Assembly (NCBI RefSeq): GCF_036507355.1
Contig: NZ_AP027882.1
Reading direction: 5' to 3' (one strand)
Length of the DNA stretch: 5,284 bases
Source of the DNA: Escherichia coli
Lineage (GTDB): Bacteria > Pseudomonadota > Gammaproteobacteria > Enterobacterales > Enterobacteriaceae
Below are positions 338 to 5,284 of this stretch, one piece after another. A program made the translations under genes and the position numbers. The notes beneath the pieces were generated by a model. That model was not told the origin of the DNA and did not search any database. It was given only the letters and a program-made list of their open reading frames with translations. How positions within the stretch are numbered: the stretch's first letter is position 1; each line of letters opens with the position of its first letter.

Positions 338-1862
338 AATTCACTCGCGCGGTGCGGGCTCAGGCAGTGGTCCGGTGGATTATCTGCTGGGAAAAGACCG
401 GCAACGCGAACAGGCCAGTGTGCTGCGCGGCAACCCTGAATATGTGCGCGAGCTTATCGACGGCTGCGACTTTTCCCGCGCCTACACTTCCGGTGTGCTG
501 TCATTCCAGGAGCCGGACATTGCGGATGCCGAGAAATCGCGCCTGATGGATGAATGGGAGCACACGCTGCTGACCGGCCTCGACCGTGACCAGTACGCCT
601 GTCTGTGGGTGGAGCACCGCGACAAGGGACGGCTTGAGCTGAATTTTGTCATCCCGAACATCGAATTGCAGAGCGGCAAACGCCTTCAGCCCTACTTTGA
701 CCGCGCCGACCGCCCCCGCGTCAACGCCTGGCAGACCCTGACTAATGACCGGCTGGGGCTGCGTGACCCGAACGACCCGACCTGTCGCCGACCGCTGACA
801 CAGGCCAGCGATCTGCCCCGCGACAAACAGCTGGCGGCAGAGAAAATCACCACCGGCCTGATGAACCTGATGCAGCAGGGTGTGATCCGCAGCCGGCAGG
901 ACGTGGTGGCGCAGCTGGAAAGCTACGGCCTGACCGTGGCGCGGGAAACGAAAAGCAGCATCAGCATTGCCGATCCGGACGGTGGCAGAAATATCCGGCT
1001 GAAAGGAATGATTTATGAGCGAGATTTTAAATTTGGCGAAGGGCTTCGAGGAGAAATCGAAGCAGCAGGCGCAGGATATCGAGCAGAGCGTGAAGCGCGA
1101 GTTCGGGAGGCTGGAGATGTCTATCGGCGCGGAACTGCAATCAAGCTCGCAGAGCATCAGCAACGCTATCCGCGAGCAGAACGGCAGGCTGACGGGCATG
1201 ATCAGAGCCTCCGTCTCAACGGCGATGGCGTGGATATTCACCAGCTTCGCCCTGCTGATCGGCATCCTGGGCGGGATAATCTGGTTTCAGGGCACGATCA
1301 TCACCTCACGCCTGAGCGAAATGGACAGCTACAGCCAGCAGCTGGCGAGCCTGAAAGCGAAAAGTGGCGCGGGTGTGACGATTTACAGCGACGACTCCCG
1401 CCGGAACACCTACCTGGTGGTGCTGCCGAAGCAGGCACACGGTGTGGAAACCTACACGTCACAGGCCGGAAACACTGTAGTGAAATACACGGCGAAATAA
1501 CCCCATCAGAACGCCCTGAAACGCCTCAGCGCGTTTTTAACACCGAGGACGACCAAAACCATGACCGAGATGGAAAAACAGCTTCTGAGCGCCTTAGAGA
1601 GCTTACAGACAAGCTACGAGCAACAGCAGCAGGCATGGCAGGCCAGCTACAGCAGTTTGCAGCACATGTTCGAGACTACCTCGCAGGCGCTGGAACGCAG
1701 CGACAGGGTCTGTCAGCACTTGAGCAGTCAGGTGAACAGCTTGCGCGATCAGGTCGAGAACTTGAGCTGCAACGTCAGCCGGTTAATGCGCTCGTGAAGC
1801 AGCACGAACACCAGATTCAGATGGAAAAAAAGCGGACACGTTATCACGGCCTTTCAATTTAA
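327..1862 (+). CDS. mbeA: Mobilization relaxase, ColE1 MbeA-like (MOB HEN family)
   Basis: Long GC-rich ORF (open from TTG 303). N-terminus from GTG 327 reads MIVKIHSRGAGSGSGPVDYLLG, closely resembling ColE1 MbeA including the catalytic-Tyr context. Conserved stretch WVEHRDKGRLELNFVIPN (nt about 606-659) carries the His/Glu/Asn motif. GGAG at 316-319 sits 7 nt before GTG 327, so I prefer 327 over 303; the start is uncertain. Confidence 0.88.
   Translation: MIVKIHSRGAGSGSGPVDYLLGKDRQREQASVLRGNPEYVRELIDGCDFSRAYTSGVLSFQEPDIADAEKSRLMDEWEHTLLTGLDRDQYACLWVEHRDKGRLELNFVIPNIELQSGKRLQPYFDRADRPRVNAWQTLTNDRLGLRDPNDPTCRRPLTQASDLPRDKQLAAEKITTGLMNLMQQGVIRSRQDVVAQLESYGLTVARETKSSISIADPDGGRNIRLKGMIYERDFKFGEGLRGEIEAAGAGYRAEREARVREAGDVYRRGTAIKLAEHQQRYPRAERQADGHDQSLRLNGDGVDIHQLRPADRHPGRDNLVSGHDHHLTPERNGQLQPAAGEPESEKWRGCDDLQRRLPPEHLPGGAAEAGTRCGNLHVTGRKHCSEIHGEITPSERPETPQRVFNTEDDQNHDRDGKTASERLRELTDKLRATAAGMAGQLQQFAAHVRDYLAGAGTQRQGLSALEQSGEQLARSGRELELQRQPVNALVKQHEHQIQMEKKRTRYHGLSI
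1015..1500 (+). CDS. mbeB: Mobilization protein MbeB-like, nested within mbeA in an alternate frame
   Basis: 161-aa ORF in a different frame from mbeA, AAGGA 7 nt upstream of the ATG, central hydrophobic segment (AMAWIFTSFALLIGILGGIIWF). Position and size match the mbeB gene nested in ColE1 mbeA. Confidence 0.75.
   Translation: MSEILNLAKGFEEKSKQQAQDIEQSVKREFGRLEMSIGAELQSSSQSISNAIREQNGRLTGMIRASVSTAMAWIFTSFALLIGILGGIIWFQGTIITSRLSEMDSYSQQLASLKAKSGAGVTIYSDDSRRNTYLVVLPKQAHGVETYTSQAGNTVVKYTAK
1561..1797 (+). CDS. mbeD: MbeD-like mobilization/entry-exclusion protein, nested in the 3' part of mbeA
   Basis: 78-aa ORF in the same alternate frame as mbeB, GAGGA upstream, Gln/Ser-rich probable coiled coil (MTEMEKQLLSALESLQ..). 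Matches the position and character of ColE1 mbeD. Confidence 0.7.
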   Translation: MTEMEKQLLSALESLQTSYEQQQQAWQASYSSLQHMFETTSQALERSDRVCQHLSSQVNSLRDQVENLSCNVSRLMRS

Positions 1863-1897
1863 GAGTCATGTAAGTTGTTTTTAAGGTTTTTTTTAAC

Positions 1898-1925
1898 TTG
1901 ATATAAGGTCTATGTAATGTATATT
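1898..1925 (+). promoter_or_regulatory. Candidate sigma70 promoter (TTGATA, 16-bp spacer, TATATT) in the AT-rich islet, upstream of the 78-aa ORF
   Basis: TTGATA at 1898-1903 and TATATT at 1920-1925 with a 16-bp spacer, in a strongly AT-rich intergenic stretch. Sequence-pattern call only. Confidence 0.3.
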
Positions 1926-1958
1926 TATCTCGATTTTTAATTGAGGTAAAAAGTAAAA

Positions 1959-2195
1959 ATGGCTAAGGGTGCTCAAGCAATTTCTAAAGAAATAAACGAG
2001 TTAATGAGAAAAAACGGGAATGAGTGCATTACCTTGAAGTGGGAGCAGTTCTACGAGATATGTGAAAGAGAAAGGCTTGCAGAAGTAGTCATGGAAAGAG
2101 TGTCAGAAAGCCTTAAAAAAAATGACCTTCATATTATCTACGGTAACAACGTGATTATCGTAAGAGATTTCTGTTGGAAACCCGTTTCTCTTTAG
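1959..2195 (+). CDS. Hypothetical small protein (78 aa), unknown function
   Basis: ATG at 1959 preceded by GAGGT (1944-1948). AT-rich codon usage distinct from the flanking GC-rich genes. No family recognised from the translation. Only ORF in the islet. Confidence 0.5.
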   Translation: MAKGAQAISKEINELMRKNGNECITLKWEQFYEICERERLAEVVMERVSESLKKNDLHIIYGNNVIIVRDFCWKPVSL

Positions 2196-2201
2196 TGATT
2201 A

Positions 2202-2229
2202 GTGACAACGTGTTGTTTTAAGGTATAAG
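2202..2229 (+). promoter_or_regulatory. Candidate rep promoter (GTGACA, 16-bp spacer, TATAAG)
   Basis: GTGACA at 2202-2207 and TATAAG at 2224-2229. Would give a leader of roughly 140 nt before the rep start, consistent with leader-based control of ColE2-type rep genes. Pattern-based only. Confidence 0.3.
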
Positions 2230-2373
2230 TTTAACGGCAGAAAAAACAAAGCCCCGGCAATCATGAGCTATCTTGGCGGATGAGCATGACTACCAGGGCC
2301 AGGTACAAAACCTTGAAAGGATATTAGCACATGAACTGTGCCAGACAACAGCCCGCCATAAGCGCAGGGCGCT

Positions 2374-3270
2374 TTGAGTAACGCCGCACTCGAACTATTC
2401 AACGAACGCTTGCCGCACAAGCCGTACTTTTCGGACGATTTGCACTTTGGTGTACGCATTGCCGGCAAGGAACGCGCCATTCTGGCGAAATACATCCAGT
2501 TCAATCAGCCTCATGCCATGTTCTGGCTGGGATTCGATGTTGATCGCGCCGGTGCCGCTATTGACTGGAGTGACCGCAATGCTCCCGCGCCCACACTGAC
2601 CATCACCAACCCCGAAAACGGACACGCGCATCTGCTGTACGCGCTAAAAACCTCGATACGCACAGCGCCGGACGGAAAAATGAAGCCGCTGCGCTACGCT
2701 GCCGCCGTGGAGAACGCGCTACGTAAAAAATTAGAGGCTGACGCGGGGTATTCAGGGTTAATCTGCAAAAATCCGAACCACAGGCACTGGAAAATTGCCG
2801 TGTGGCAGCCGGAACTCTACACACTGGACTGGCTGGCCGATTTCCTTGACCTGAACGCTGCGAACGATAAAGAAATCGTTGCCGACTACGGATTAGGCCG
2901 TAACTGCACCTTGTTCGACAAAACCCGAAAATGGGCTTATCGTGCTATTCGTCAGGGCTGGCCTGAGTATGGACAATGGATGCTAGCTTGTGTTGAAAGA
3001 GCTACAGCTTACAACATGCAGTTTTCAGCACCATTAGATGAAAAGGAGGTCATAAGTATAGCGAAGAGTATATCTAAATGGACATATTCTAAATTCACAC
3101 AGCAATCTTTCGATGAATATGTTAAGAAAACACACTCAGCTGAATGTCAGAGTATAAGAGGGCGCAAGAGCTCTGGCGGAGGGCGGCCAAAAATAAGATC
3201 TGAGGAGTGGGTCTCTCTAGGTATTAGTCGCGCTACGTGGTATAGGAAGCACTATAAAAATGAAAATTAA
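2374..3270 (+). CDS. rep: ColE2-type plasmid replication initiator (Rep, primase-like replicase with PriCT-like and C-terminal HTH regions)
   Basis: 298-aa ORF starting at TTG 2374, with an in-frame stop at 2359-2361 just upstream. Translation (..ERLPHKPYFSDD..FDVDRAGAAIDWSDRNAPAP..NGHAHLLYAL..YSGLICKNPNHRHW..GLGRNCTLFDKTRKWAYRAIRQGWP..) follows the conserved blocks of ColE2-family Rep as I recall them. C-terminus has a basic tract and an HTH-like WVSLGISRATWYRK. Base composition switches from GC-rich to AT-rich near 2950. Confidence 0.85.
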   Translation: MSNAALELFNERLPHKPYFSDDLHFGVRIAGKERAILAKYIQFNQPHAMFWLGFDVDRAGAAIDWSDRNAPAPTLTITNPENGHAHLLYALKTSIRTAPDGKMKPLRYAAAVENALRKKLEADAGYSGLICKNPNHRHWKIAVWQPELYTLDWLADFLDLNAANDKEIVADYGLGRNCTLFDKTRKWAYRAIRQGWPEYGQWMLACVERATAYNMQFSAPLDEKEVISIAKSISKWTYSKFTQQSFDEYVKKTHSAECQSIRGRKSSGGGRPKIRSEEWVSLGISRATWYRKHYKNEN

Positions 3271-3916
3271 GATGTATGTCTTGTCTTTGTTTTTTTTGTT
3301 TATACCAATAATTTTTTATTTTTCTGGTATTGATGATGTCTGGAACGTTTTTACCAAAGCTAATGGTTTTTGTGATGGCGTCAGTAATCGTATTGTCTGT
3401 ATAACAGGTAATATGGGCAACCAGCTATCTCTATCCGTGTCAAGGTTATGCGTTTGTATTTTTTTGGTCTTTTTGTGTGGCTATACTTACTGGTGGTATA
3501 AGAGACAGCTTTCATTTTTGGATAGGGGGATTACCTCTGCCGAAGTGGTTGTTGTTGGATGCGAAAAAGAGTCAACTGAGTATCTGTCATTTTTGTCAAC
3601 TTACATAATGCCCCTGGTTTTTACAGACTTAACAAAACCTTCAAATGTTTTCAATTTCATTTTTATTCTAGTTATTGTCGGATTTCTTCATATAAAAACA
3701 AGAAGGATTCATAGCAACCCAACGCTTTCATTGTTTGGTGTTTCTGCTTACAAAATTGACTATATAATCAGGGTTGATGGTCAGGATTCTGATATCACAA
3801 AAGGATTGATTGTCCTGTCGAAGGATGAGATATCTGTGAAAAGTGTAATTCGAATCATAAAAAAAGAAGACTACATTACATTCGCAAAATACATAAGGAA
3901 CGATTCAAATGGCTGA
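3260..3916 (+). CDS. Multi-pass inner-membrane protein, unknown function (about 4 predicted TM helices plus a roughly 70-aa soluble C-terminal domain)
   Basis: 218-aa AT-rich ORF. Hydrophobic segments at about aa 5-23, 57-80, 108-121 and 129-145, followed by a charged tail. ATG 3260 overlaps the rep stop (3268-3270); AGGAAG at 3244-3249. An alternative in-frame ATG is at 3272. Confidence 0.7.
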   Translation: MKIKMYVLSLFFLFIPIIFYFSGIDDVWNVFTKANGFCDGVSNRIVCITGNMGNQLSLSVSRLCVCIFLVFLCGYTYWWYKRQLSFLDRGITSAEVVVVGCEKESTEYLSFLSTYIMPLVFTDLTKPSNVFNFIFILVIVGFLHIKTRRIHSNPTLSLFGVSAYKIDYIIRVDGQDSDITKGLIVLSKDEISVKSVIRIIKKEDYITFAKYIRNDSNG

Positions 3917-5054
3917 AGAAAAACTGGATTTAAGCGAGCTCCATCATGACGCGCAGAAGGCCTCTGAGCTCTCATCCTATTACTCCCACTTCGATACAAA
4001 GGTAGAAGATTTTGACCTTCATGTATATTTTAACTTTAGGCATAAGATAAAGGGCGGTGATGGAAAGTACCGTTACGAATATCGGGTTGCAAAAATAGAT
4101 GATACTACTGTTCTGAAAGAATCAATCAAAGATAACGTGATAACAAAAACCCTTAATGATCTAAGTAGCGGTAGAGTTGCAGTATCTGATATAAAGCAGC
4201 TTAGTGATAGGGCTAGCACTATATCATTTTTAGAAGATGCAAAGTCATACAAAGATGAACAGATGTCTTTTTTGACAGGTATTATTTTTGATAAGGGATT
4301 TGGAGGTGATGGGGATATTCCTGTCGTCAATTTTGAGAAGTTTGATAAAATATCAAAGGTTGACTCAATTGTTTTTGTCTTAAGGAAAGGTGATAAATGT
4401 ATAACAATATACAAAAAACAGTATCCTATACAGAACCTGACCAAACAGAAAAATCATTACTTCTCATATAGCAAAGATACGTTATCAAAAATAGATGCTG
4501 ACATGATATCAATTGATGGAAAAGCCTCTATTGTTTTTGTTAAAGGTACTGCATATATCTATGATCAGGATGTTTTTGAGAAATTTTTCGGATACAAGAA
4601 GTGGATAAAAAAAGTTGCGGGCGAATTTGTTTCTGAAATGAAGCAAAAATTTTCATCGATAGTAGACTTTGGAAAAGTTACCGACAGGCTTGAAAAAGAA
4701 AGTGCTGATGCAGATGCCTTTTCAAGGAAACTGGCAAGAATATATAACAATAAAGATCTAAGAGCTTCCTTTAATACTGTTACACCAGAAAAAATCAGTG
4801 ATTTTTTAGTTGAAAATGAGTATTTCGCTAGATTGCTAAAGTACAAATCAGCGGAAGAACCTTTAGAAGTATCAACCCATGATCAGCAGGAAGCATTTAT
4901 ATTAATAGTTTCTGAGGGCGTTCTTCGCTCGCTTATTACTGGTTTTGATTATTTAAGCCCTGCCGCGAAAAGAAAAATTGCGACAGGCCAAACCGCGCAA
5001 AAACCTTCTTCTGTAGTAACTAGGATACCCTCCAGCGCATCTGACGCCGCCTAA
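3909..5054 (+). CDS. Hypothetical 381-aa soluble protein, unknown function; candidate effector or sensor partner of the upstream membrane protein
   Basis: Long AT-rich ORF with AAGGAA 8 nt upstream. ATG 3909 overlaps the upstream stop (3914-3916) in an ATGGCTGA junction. No Walker, HxH, nuclease or other motif recognisable by eye. Ends just upstream of a strong hairpin plus T-run. Confidence 0.8.
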   Translation: MAEEKLDLSELHHDAQKASELSSYYSHFDTKVEDFDLHVYFNFRHKIKGGDGKYRYEYRVAKIDDTTVLKESIKDNVITKTLNDLSSGRVAVSDIKQLSDRASTISFLEDAKSYKDEQMSFLTGIIFDKGFGGDGDIPVVNFEKFDKISKVDSIVFVLRKGDKCITIYKKQYPIQNLTKQKNHYFSYSKDTLSKIDADMISIDGKASIVFVKGTAYIYDQDVFEKFFGYKKWIKKVAGEFVSEMKQKFSSIVDFGKVTDRLEKESADADAFSRKLARIYNNKDLRASFNTVTPEKISDFLVENEYFARLLKYKSAEEPLEVSTHDQQEAFILIVSEGVLRSLITGFDYLSPAAKRKIATGQTAQKPSSVVTRIPSSASDAA

Positions 5055-5077: not shown

Positions 5078-5125
5078 CCTATATCAGATAACAGCCCTCT
5101 CTAAGAGAGGGCTGTTTTTTTTGCA
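5078..5125 (+). other. Candidate ColE2-type replication origin element
   Basis: TATCAGATAACAGC at about 5081-5094 matches the core of the ColE2 ori as I remember it (recall, not search), and is followed immediately by the hairpin and T-run. It lies about 1.8 kb downstream of rep, not directly after it. Confidence 0.4.
5091..5122 (+). terminator. Rho-independent terminator-like hairpin with T-run closing the rep-cargo operon
   Basis: Perfect inverted repeat ACAGCCCTCTC (5091-5101) / GAGAGGGCTGT (5105-5115) around a TAA loop, followed by eight T (5115-5122). Read directly from the sequence. Confidence 0.65.
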
Positions 5126-5139
5126 GCCAGCACAGAATC

Positions 5140-5245
5140 TGACATACTACACCATACCATAAGCCAGTACACACAGCGTCCCCTCTGCGAGGTGCCGTCT
5201 GTGACTGGTTCAGGGGGCTCGCCGCCCCCCGAAACCCCCGGCATC
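5140..5245 (-). other. ColE1 bom-like oriT with putative nic site (minus strand)
   Basis: Minus strand reads ..GAACCAGTCAC..(31 nt)..GTGTGTACTGGCTTATGGTATG.., resembling the pBR322/ColE1 bom region ..GACCCAGTCAC..GTGTATACTGGCTTAACTATG.. recalled from memory. Putative nic within CTGG/CTTA, between plus-strand 5163 and 5164. GC-rich inverted repeat GGGGGC / GCCCCC at 5213-5229 nearby. Confidence 0.5.
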
Positions 5246-5284
5246 CACTGCGAAAAATTCTCACGGTGGTGCGAATTTTTTCTT

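Follow-up and report, generated by a model that had tools for sequence, protein, structure and literature searches.

Mobilization module of pLAO2

The window analysed here comprises the whole of the E. coli plasmid pLAO2 (NZ_OP242216.1; 5,284 bp). Its replicon is typed as Col(Ye4449), MOB-suite predicts it to be mobilizable and its cargo is a Kiwa defence system. The mobilization genes all lie on the plus strand. Upstream of them is a conserved non-coding region at 5130–5284 with inverted repeats at 5209–5233 and 5253–5280. Six relatives of the Col(Ye4449) type have it almost unchanged, and it is a putative oriT and mob promoter region. The promoter scan gave sites no more numerous than chance, and Rfam found no match over 1–1900. 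The first gene, at 11–337, is a mobC/mbeC-like gene for a ribbon-helix-helix relaxosome accessory protein (Pfam MobC 41.9 bits, NikA-like 44.8 bits); the pLAO2 record names it mobC. The gene shares its final 11 nt with the start of the relaxase gene (GTG at 327), which places a ribbon-helix-helix gene directly upstream of the relaxase, as in the ColE1-type module.

The relaxase gene mbeA (327–1862) encodes a 511-aa protein of the MOB-HEN/MOBP5 type. GTG 327 (MIVKIH...) is most likely the start, rather than the first listed TTG 303, because it is conserved in 12 relatives, in which the relaxase frame is open as well, and is used by PGAP. Y19, H97, E104 and N106 (WVEHRDKGRLELNF) are invariant in a 13-sequence alignment of relaxase homologues. 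More specifically, the protein has the catalytic Tyr of motif I and an H-E-N set in place of the three-histidine motif III, which is how the HEN class of relaxases is defined (PMC12857230). Pfam Relaxase matches it with 28.1 bits (cut-off 24.6). The NCBIfam model of the ColE1 MbeA equivalog (NF047848, relax_MbeA_E1) matches over the full length with 474.3 bits, the cut-off being 500. Judged by its sequence the relaxase is an MbeA homologue and not the ColE1 equivalog. In PLSDB more than 3,400 plasmids have this relaxase.

Two further genes are situated wholly inside the relaxase gene and share its +1 frame. By start coordinate both are 1 mod 3, and the relaxase ORF (303/327–1862) is 0 mod 3. 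mbeB occupies 1015–1500 (ATG, 161 aa) and mbeD 1561–1797 (ATG, 78 aa), exactly where the original prediction had placed two genes in a single alternate frame. It had also stated that they overlap the C-terminal half of the relaxase, and the overlap indeed starts at MbeA codon 230 of 511. The doubly coded DNA amounts to 486 + 237 = 723 nt, 47% of mbeA. Each nested gene was claimed to have its own ribosome-binding site, and this is borne out. Reading of the sequence gives a Shine-Dalgarno-like AAGGA at 1003–1007, within the codons for the conserved MbeA motif R-L-K-G, that ends 7 nt before the mbeB ATG. For mbeD there is GAGGA at 1545–1549, 11 nt before its ATG; this motif lies in the 60-nt spacer between the two genes (1501–1560), which codes for MbeA alone (pN/pS 0.6–1.1). 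Equivalent purine-rich motifs are present in all relatives examined. AAAGGA, AAGGG or AGAGGG precedes the mbeB ATG by 7–9 nt in 14 loci and by about 12 nt in one H. pylori locus (L021), and the mbeD motif is kept in close lineages.

MbeB consists of a conserved N-terminal domain (Pfam MbeB_N, E 3.6e-17, 62.8 bits, cut-off 22), one transmembrane helix (about aa 68–90, with a Kyte-Doolittle maximum of 2.18 at aa 71–89) and a C-terminal domain; no NCBIfam model matched it at E 0.001. MbeD, a predicted coiled coil, matches Pfam MbeD_MobD (E 3e-22, 78.9 bits, cut-off 21.6) and NCBIfam plas_excl_MbeD (109.2 bits, cut-off 60), and its PDB profile search returned generic coiled coils only. PDB sequence searches found no solved structure for MbeA or MbeB. 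Downstream of mbeD, positions 1798–1862 encode an MbeA-only C-terminal tail ending in the short motif R-Y-H-G-L-S-I. The motif recurs at the C-termini of the 13 homologues, in all lineages.

Relation to other nested mobilization genes

The ColE1-type nested arrangement has been known since the 1980s. Boyd et al. are said to have described in 1989 a ColE1 mobilization region of mbeC and mbeA with mbeB and mbeD nested. For pLAO2 itself the GenBank record already names MbeB and MbeD. A layout of the nested ColE1 type is given in like terms in PMC5935869, PMC9282650 and PMC6118388, and in the literature on mobilization genes mobB and mobD are internally encoded in mobA. As the original prediction expected, the layout of pLAO2 is the classic ColE1 one. 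In the ColE1-like plasmid pSF-468-3 (NZ_CP012628.1), which encodes a HEN relaxase, mbeA lies at 1920–3473, mbeB at 2608–3126 and mbeD at 3133–3366; both nested genes are in the +1 frame, the gene order is the same and mbeB begins 688 nt after the mbeA start. All four Mob proteins are homologous between ColE1 and pLAO2. MbeA is 43% identical to the ColE1-like protein, and alignment by BLASTP (MbeB 27%, E 2e-11; MbeD 41%, E 1e-12) together with the Pfam matches supports the predicted identity of the nested genes. There are also differences: the spacer between mbeB and mbeD is 60 nt in pLAO2 and 6 nt in ColE1, and MbeB has 161 aa as compared to 172 aa. Unlike ColE1, pLAO2 has a ColE2-type Rep (Pfam Replicase and PriCT_1 at 2374–3270). 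It is not a ColE1 replicon, which has the RNAII/RNAI primer-antisense pair and Rom; Rfam did not detect RNAI and gave, upstream of rep, only PK-repBA and CopA-like matches below threshold. pLAO2 also carries Kiwa as cargo and no colicin or exclusion gene cluster.

Three plasmids of the Col(Ye4449) type were compared: pYe4449-1 (NC_012208.1), typed Col(Ye4449) like pLAO2 itself, p58 of ETEC H10407 (NC_017723.1) and a pMUT2-like record of E. coli Nissle 1917 (NZ_CP022687.1). Their mob modules are 65–92% identical to that of pLAO2 at the nucleotide level, have the 60-nt spacer and contain no indels in the overlap, and the Nissle record also shares a KwaB gene with it. The three plasmids differ from pLAO2 in cargo, which is toxin-antitoxin pairs, a dCTP deaminase or Kiwa. 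MbeB identity goes down to 39% in this pMUT2-like record, the relaxase N-terminus being still 78% identical. R1162/RSF1010 (MOBQ) follows the same logic, with mobB in another frame inside mobA and a likely role similar to that of MbeB. Its relaxase is of another family, with a primase C-terminal domain, and there is one nested gene instead of two; the likeness of MobB to MbeB drawn here is one of layout and likely role.

The nested layout was found in 12 divergent lineages (Enterobacterales, Vibrio, Aeromonas, Acinetobacter and Helicobacter, including H. pylori), and in ten of them the distance from the mbeA start to the mbeB ATG is exactly 688 nt. A Pfam scan assigned the nested ORFs of Acinetobacter and H. 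pylori to neither the MbeB nor the MbeD family. For those of Acinetobacter hhalign gave a probability of 86% against both the MbeB and MbeD profiles. For the nested ORFs of H. pylori hhalign detected no sequence similarity, and what they have in common with the others is architecture only. A Neisseria gonorrhoeae plasmid was considered as a non-nested counter-example and rejected: a frameshift interrupts the relaxase gene, and further downstream an ORF in the MbeA frame (1435–2355) still encloses MbeB.

Uneven constraint on the two reading frames

Neither the MbeA frame nor the nested frame contains a stop codon in any of the 12 lineages, down to 37% G+C. Synonymous-codon shuffles, which are conservative, expect 3–14 stops, and the third frame has 17–51. 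In the window alone both frames have 0 stops as compared to 4–5 expected by shuffles (P 0.0008 and 0.0024), and the third frame has 19. When each nested ORF was shuffled singly with its own codon usage, P was 0.02–0.14. This null errs too far on the conservative side, since the overlap has itself shaped the codon usage, and it was replaced by pooled shuffles and a null using N-terminal codon usage, across 12 lineages. As a control for chance ORFs we used an antisense ORF in the same relaxase gene (501–1265, minus strand, 254 aa). It is open within the closest clade (lineages L003, L006 and L007) and has 1–7 stops in relatives outside it. Indels follow the same line. The first 1,485 columns of the 12-sequence alignment, which span the doubly coded DNA, have none; those that occur are confined to the MbeA-only tail and measure 3, 33 and 54 nt, all multiples of 3.

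The original prediction had proposed an analysis of codon-position conservation in both frames across related plasmids, and substitutions agree with conservation of the alternate frame. In the single-coded N-terminus variability is highest at MbeA position 3 (0.39 vs 0.14 and 0.08), and inside the overlaps it peaks at position 3 of MbeB and MbeD (chi-square P 0.003 and 0.03). Estimates of omega in overlapping frames are confounded and the compared pairs are not phylogenetically independent; read in this way, pNN/pNS of MbeB and MbeD was 0.35–0.55 in the five closer lineages (kappa 1–2) and up to 0.84 over all settings, and pNN/pSN, taken as omega of MbeA, reached values of 1 or more. The latter does not prove neutrality, since MbeA-synonymous changes are second-position changes in MbeB. 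Amino-acid identity in the third frame was added as a control because of this confounding. T is depressed at the third position of nested codons (0.07 vs 0.15); avoidance of stop codons in the MbeA frame would have this effect. In G+C-rich lineages the RSCU correlation within the overlap is 0.56–0.80 for the nested frame, and for the MbeA frame it is about 0. Codons in the nested frame are used as in other coding DNA of the plasmid, and the overlapping part of MbeA is unlike the rest of its gene. Codon usage is suggestive as to the relative age of the two frames but confounded by stop avoidance, and we draw on it only for the overprinting reading given below. Our comparisons show that selection has kept both frames in plasmids that diverge strongly from one another.

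Double-coding constraint had been predicted for about 720 bp. The extent holds, with 723 nt doubly coded and both frames open, but the constraint is bilateral only at 1015–1173. This segment encodes the N-terminal domain of MbeB and an MbeA helix (aa 237–280) and is constrained in both frames (pNN/pSN 0.60, pNN/pNS 0.63). Its nucleotide identity of 0.85 is the highest of all relaxase-gene segments examined, and the AF2 model of MbeA has a helix here, with a block-mean pLDDT of 74–93 over aa 241–280 and 65 for the block aa 231–240. At 1174–1497 amino acids are conserved in the MbeB frame only (identity 0.65 for MbeB, 0.49 for MbeA, 0.50 for the third frame). The MbeA frame is open there and as variable as the non-coding frame, no amino-acid-level selection on it was seen in this segment (pNN/pSN 1 or more), and MbeA aa 286–417 are predicted to be disordered, with pLDDT below 50. 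Consequently, the case that this part of MbeA is translated rests on stop avoidance, frame-preserving indels and the conserved tail. At 1561–1797 the MbeD frame dominates the constraint and MbeA is predicted to form low-confidence helices. Constraint is uneven, bilateral over about 160 nt and dominated by the nested frame elsewhere. It appears that the MbeA frame is kept open at 1174–1497 and 1561–1797 to reach the helices and the conserved C-terminal tail motif.

Interpretation and origin of the overlap

We read the locus, with a probability of about 0.93, as a ColE1-type (MOB-HEN/MOBP5) mobC-mbeA operon whose relaxase gene carries two reading frames over about 47% of its length. The anatomy suggests that a single mRNA starting near the putative oriT would be translated into MobC and then, from the GTG overlapping the mobC stop, into MbeA. 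Internal initiation at the two Shine-Dalgarno and ATG sites in the +1 frame would yield MbeB and MbeD. MbeB would span the membrane once and have its conserved N-terminal domain in the cytoplasm, and MbeD would be a small protein forming a coiled coil. By analogy with their families, MbeA would nick oriT and be transferred with the DNA, MobC/MbeC would aid nicking, and MbeB and MbeD would act as accessory or exclusion factors raising transfer efficiency. In PMC4655240, citing Meyer 2011, R1162 MobB is described as a membrane-anchored accessory protein that stimulates transfer via interaction with the relaxase MobA. MbeB probably tethers the relaxosome to the membrane or the coupling protein in a similar way.

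Long alternative-frame ORFs are frequent in G+C-rich genes, and it could be argued that the nested ORFs are chance shadows of such a gene and the MbeB and MbeD families propagated annotation artefacts. The 254-aa antisense ORF and the P values of 0.02–0.14 from single-sequence shuffles agree with this. However, the antisense ORF is broken in most relatives, whereas in 12 lineages, A+T-rich Acinetobacter and H. pylori among them, the nested ORFs are kept with their ATG and Shine-Dalgarno. Variability mostly at the nested-frame third position, pNN/pNS of 0.35–0.55 in closer lineages, codon usage like that of the plasmid's other coding DNA and the clear transmembrane helix of MbeB also speak against chance, which we regard as very improbable. 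The same can be said of a programmed +1 frameshift near codon 229 that would make MbeB and MbeD as fusions to the N-terminal relaxase domain. Such a mechanism would fit the observation that in ten lineages the nested frame opens precisely at the boundary of the relaxase domain, but Shine-Dalgarno and ATG are conserved at both nested starts. Moreover, the stop-to-stop nested frame opens at 1012, so close to the mbeB ATG (3 nt) that a shift site would not fit in between, and no slippery motif was noticed on reading 990–1015 by eye.

A somewhat better, still improbable, alternative denies the full-length relaxase. It proposes a short relaxase, made up of at most about 230 aa of the N-terminal part, with mbeB and mbeD as separate genes behind it, the MbeA frame being open over 1015–1862 by accident or inertia. 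MbeA-frame conservation at 1174–1497 no better than that of the non-coding frame, pNN/pSN of about 1, the predicted disorder of aa 286–417 and atypical MbeA-frame codon usage in the overlap can all be explained in this way. Against it stand 0 stops in the MbeA frame of 12 lineages where 3–14 are expected, tail indels that are all multiples of three, the constraint on MbeA at 1015–1173, the tail motif conserved beyond mbeD and the full-length NCBIfam match. In addition, ColE1 MbeA is reportedly a protein of about 57–60 kDa (attributed to Boyd 1989 and Varsaki 2003). PGAP calls a truncated pseudogene, equivalent to 327–644, in plasmids 92% and 99.8% identical to pLAO2, which would suit a short relaxase, but such calls have already been seen as errors (PMC11229322).

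Returning to the operon with a full-length MbeA, the pseudogene annotation follows from a score of 474 bits that falls just under the 500-bit NCBIfam cut-off. The NCBI pipeline cannot hold fully nested genes. Either the relaxase is cut to a pseudogene, as in the pLAO2 family, or mbeB and mbeD are omitted, as in ColE1 proper. This artefact, noted in PMC11229322, can lead to wrong counts of relaxases and pseudogenes and of plasmid mobility.

As to how the overlap arose, it is possible, though we would not favour it, that the C-terminal half of MbeA is the younger frame: a read-through extension overprinted on pre-existing mbeB and mbeD, largely free to drift and selected for nothing but openness. 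The native-like codon usage of the nested genes, MbeA conservation at 1174–1497 equal to that of a non-coding frame, and the tail motif support this. The open frame may then serve to join the nuclease domain to the conserved tail motif (R-x-G-[PLM]-S-[LMI]), which the transfer machinery could recognise as a signal. The polarity may also be the opposite, mbeB and mbeD having been born inside a disordered relaxase linker. The insight added here to a known arrangement is modest: double coding is asymmetric, and the relaxase frame seems to be open mainly for the sake of its conserved C-terminal tail. If overprinting is true, the C-terminal half of MbeA would be an ancient gene extension conserved from Enterobacterales to Helicobacter.

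Position, identity and distribution of the nested genes

Two ORFs had been predicted inside the relaxase gene mbeA (327-1862), and both are present there: mbeB at 1015-1500 (161 aa) and mbeD at 1561-1797 (78 aa). Their starts lie at 1 mod 3 and that of the relaxase at 0 mod 3; therefore both use the same +1 frame and are fully enclosed. GTG 327 (MIVKIH...) is the most likely start of the relaxase; it is kept in 12 relatives and is also the choice of PGAP. From GTG 327 the relaxase has 511 aa, the overlap begins at codon 230 and the doubly coded DNA totals 723 nt. Each nested gene also appears to have its own ribosome-binding site, as proposed. Specifically, AAGGA (1003-1007) lies 7 nt 5' of the mbeB ATG and GAGGA (1545-1549) 11 nt 5' of the mbeD ATG, and equivalent motifs are kept in all relatives examined. 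The Shine-Dalgarno-like motif of mbeB coincides with the codons for R-L-K-G, a conserved relaxase motif, and its Met-Ser overlies relaxase Tyr-Glu.

The product of 1015-1500 matches Pfam MbeB_N (E 3.6e-17, 62.8 bits, cut-off 22), and that of 1561-1797 is hit by two models, Pfam MbeD_MobD (E 3e-22) and NCBIfam plas_excl_MbeD (109 bits, cut-off 60). When aligned with the ColE1-type proteins of pSF-468-3 (NZ_CP012628.1), MbeB is 27% identical (E 2e-11), MbeD 41% (E 1e-12) and MbeA 43%. MbeB has a single, strongly hydrophobic helix at aa 71-89 (Kyte-Doolittle 2.18). In the PDB, MbeD resembles only generic coiled coils, and the search returned no solved structure for MbeA or MbeB. The nested arrangement is thus confirmed, and its interpretation as the classic ColE1 layout is supported: pSF-468-3 has the same organization (mbeC 1583-1930, mbeA 1920-3473, mbeB 2608-3126, mbeD 3133-3366), which has been described for ColE1 and many Col-like plasmids (PMC5935869, PMC9282650, PMC6118388). 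In contrast to ColE1, the window has a ColE2-type replicon, a spacer of 60 nt that separates mbeB from mbeD, and different cargo.

Among mob regions from 20 related plasmids, the +1 frame of the relaxase ORF holds two consecutive ORFs in 12 lineages. They include relatives as close as 92% nucleotide identity and extend to ColE1, Vibrio, Aeromonas, Klebsiella pOXA-232-type, Acinetobacter and Helicobacter pylori. The mbeB ATG lies exactly 688 nt past the relaxase start in 10 of these 12. The unannotated Acinetobacter ORFs match the MbeB and MbeD profiles in hhalign (86% probability, E about 5e-6); the H. pylori ORFs, compared by Pfam and hhalign, share with these families the architecture alone. 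We considered the cryptic plasmid of Neisseria gonorrhoeae as a non-nested exception and rejected it, as its relaxase is frameshifted and the downstream frame still encloses MbeB. In this locus (NZ_CP048249.1, 963-2355) a frameshift near 1435-1580 splits the relaxase. Its MbeB has 213 aa with an MbeD-like coiled-coil C-terminus and therefore looks like an MbeB-MbeD fusion.

Selection on the two reading frames

Neither frame contains a stop codon in any lineage, while synonymous shuffles predict 3-14 (P 0.0002 to 0.02 per lineage) and the third frame has 17-51 per lineage. The shuffles permuted synonymous codons, once in the nested genes and once in the C-terminal part of the relaxase, and left each protein and its codon usage unchanged; an alternative null with N-terminal codon usage agrees. 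The 12-sequence nucleotide alignment has no indels in its first 1,485 columns, and its only indels (3, 33 and 54 nt) preserve the frame and fall in the MbeA-only tail. As a negative control, a 254-aa antisense ORF (501-1265, minus strand) stays open in the closest clade only, with 1-7 stops in every relative outside it; it is therefore a chance ORF. Moreover, nested codons carry T less often at their third position (0.07 vs 0.15), which is the expectation under avoidance of stops in the relaxase frame.

The single-coded relaxase N-terminus shows the usual variability at codon positions 1/2/3 (0.14/0.08/0.39). The codon-position analysis called for in the original prediction shows that in the overlaps variability peaks at relaxase position 1, which is nested position 3: 0.30/0.22/0.22 over mbeB (chi-square P 0.003) and 0.25/0.14/0.19 over mbeD (P 0.03). 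When differences were classed by whether each of the two proteins changes, the nested-frame ratio pNN/pNS was 0.35-0.55 (closer lineages, kappa 1-2), which shows purifying selection on these frames. The relaxase-frame ratio pNN/pSN, about 0.8-1.75, is biased upward because MbeA-synonymous changes fall on the second position of MbeB, and therefore third-frame amino-acid identity served as the control.

The double-coding constraint predicted for about 720 bp holds in that both frames stay open, but by this control its strength is uneven among segments. Amino-acid identity in the MbeA, nested and third frames is 0.78, 0.75 and 0.73 at 1015-1173 (pNN/pSN 0.60, pNN/pNS 0.63, nucleotide identity 0.85), 0.49, 0.65 and 0.50 at 1174-1497, and 0.65, 0.73 and 0.61 at 1561-1794. 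The pattern agrees with an AlphaFold2 model of MbeA for which 13 homologues were used: residues 1-283 are predicted to be ordered, including a confident helix (237-280) encoded by the same DNA as the MbeB N-terminal domain; pLDDT stays below 50 over residues 286-417, and low-confidence helices at 412-505 share their DNA with MbeD.

A likely reason to keep the relaxase frame open lies beyond mbeD. The last seven MbeA codons (1839-1859) encode a motif, roughly R-x-G-[PLMV]-[SDE]-[LMIF], that recurs in 13 of 13 homologues, those of E. coli, Acinetobacter and H. pylori among them (RYHGLSI in the window; GPSL, GMSL, GMDF and RGYGW in other lineages). The transfer machinery may recognise this tail as a signal. 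It is possible, though rather unlikely, that mbeB and mbeD are the older genes and that the C-terminal half of the relaxase arose later, by read-through, as an overprinted and for the most part unconstrained frame.

Plasmid context and proposed expression

The window is the entire plasmid pLAO2 of human-stool E. coli (NZ_OP242216.1, 99.9-100% identity, equal length). Upstream of the relaxase is a mobC/mbeC-like gene (11-337); MobC/MbeC is an accessory protein for nicking. A small conserved hypothetical ORF (1959-2195, 78 aa) has no family match; it is kept 3' of the mob genes in relatives and is called "hypothetical" in the annotations of pLAO2 and the Yersinia plasmid pYe4449-1 (NC_012208.1). 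The best promoter-like site of the window (1898-1925, 10/12 matches) lies upstream of it. A ColE2-type replication initiator follows (2374-3270; Pfam Replicase and PriCT_1). Just 5' of it (2244-2363), Rfam gives sub-threshold matches to the PK-repBA pseudoknot on the plus strand (35.8 bits, gathering score 45) and to a CopA-like antisense RNA on the minus strand (28.2 bits, gathering score 60), which hint that an antisense RNA may control the translation of Rep, as it does in replicons of the ColE2 and IncB types. As cargo (3260-5054) the plasmid carries a full Kiwa anti-phage system, made up of kwaA (3260-3916, PADLOC KwaA, 1.9e-121) and kwaB (3909-5054, PADLOC KwaB, 1.2e-220), followed by a strong terminator-like hairpin at 5090-5116. 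KwaB also adjoins the same mob module in a pMUT2-like record from E. coli Nissle 1917 (NZ_CP022687.1). The G+C content is 58% in the mob block vs 35% in the cargo.

For mbeB and mbeD the analysis shows homology, preservation of the frame and conservation of the initiation signals. A single mob transcript would start in the conserved region 5' of mobC, with translational coupling from mobC to mbeA, and mbeB and mbeD would be made by internal initiation. That region is probably oriT plus the mob promoter: the putative oriT (5130-5284) is non-coding, near-identical in relatives and has inverted repeats, located at 5209-5233 and 5253-5280. On the circle it extends into 1-10, and its conservation among relatives exceeds that of the genes. 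MbeA belongs to the HEN-type relaxases (PMC12857230); MbeB has been described as a component of the relaxosome and MbeD as a putative exclusion protein (PMC5935869). An analogue of MbeB, likewise nested in another frame of a relaxase gene, is R1162 MobB, which according to a passage in PMC4655240 citing Meyer 2011 is membrane-anchored and binds MobA.

Annotation of the overlapping genes

Public records already contain this sequence with MbeB and MbeD annotated, and the feature is already known. In this plasmid family, PGAP reduces the relaxase to a 318-nt pseudogene ("missing C-terminus") where MbeB and MbeD are called (1327-1644 in both related loci L003 and L005), because the window relaxase scores 474 bits against the 500-bit cut-off of the NCBIfam MbeA model. 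In the pLAO2 gene table the locus tag expected between mobC and mbeB is absent, which probably has the same cause. Spurious antisense "hypothetical proteins" fill the vacated relaxase space, e.g. at 1835-2107 (minus strand) in the related locus L002. In ColE1 proper, the full mbeA is called and mbeB and mbeD are omitted. An artefact of the pseudogene type has already been reported (PMC11229322). The practical point is therefore one of annotation: PGAP loses either the full relaxase or mbeB and mbeD.
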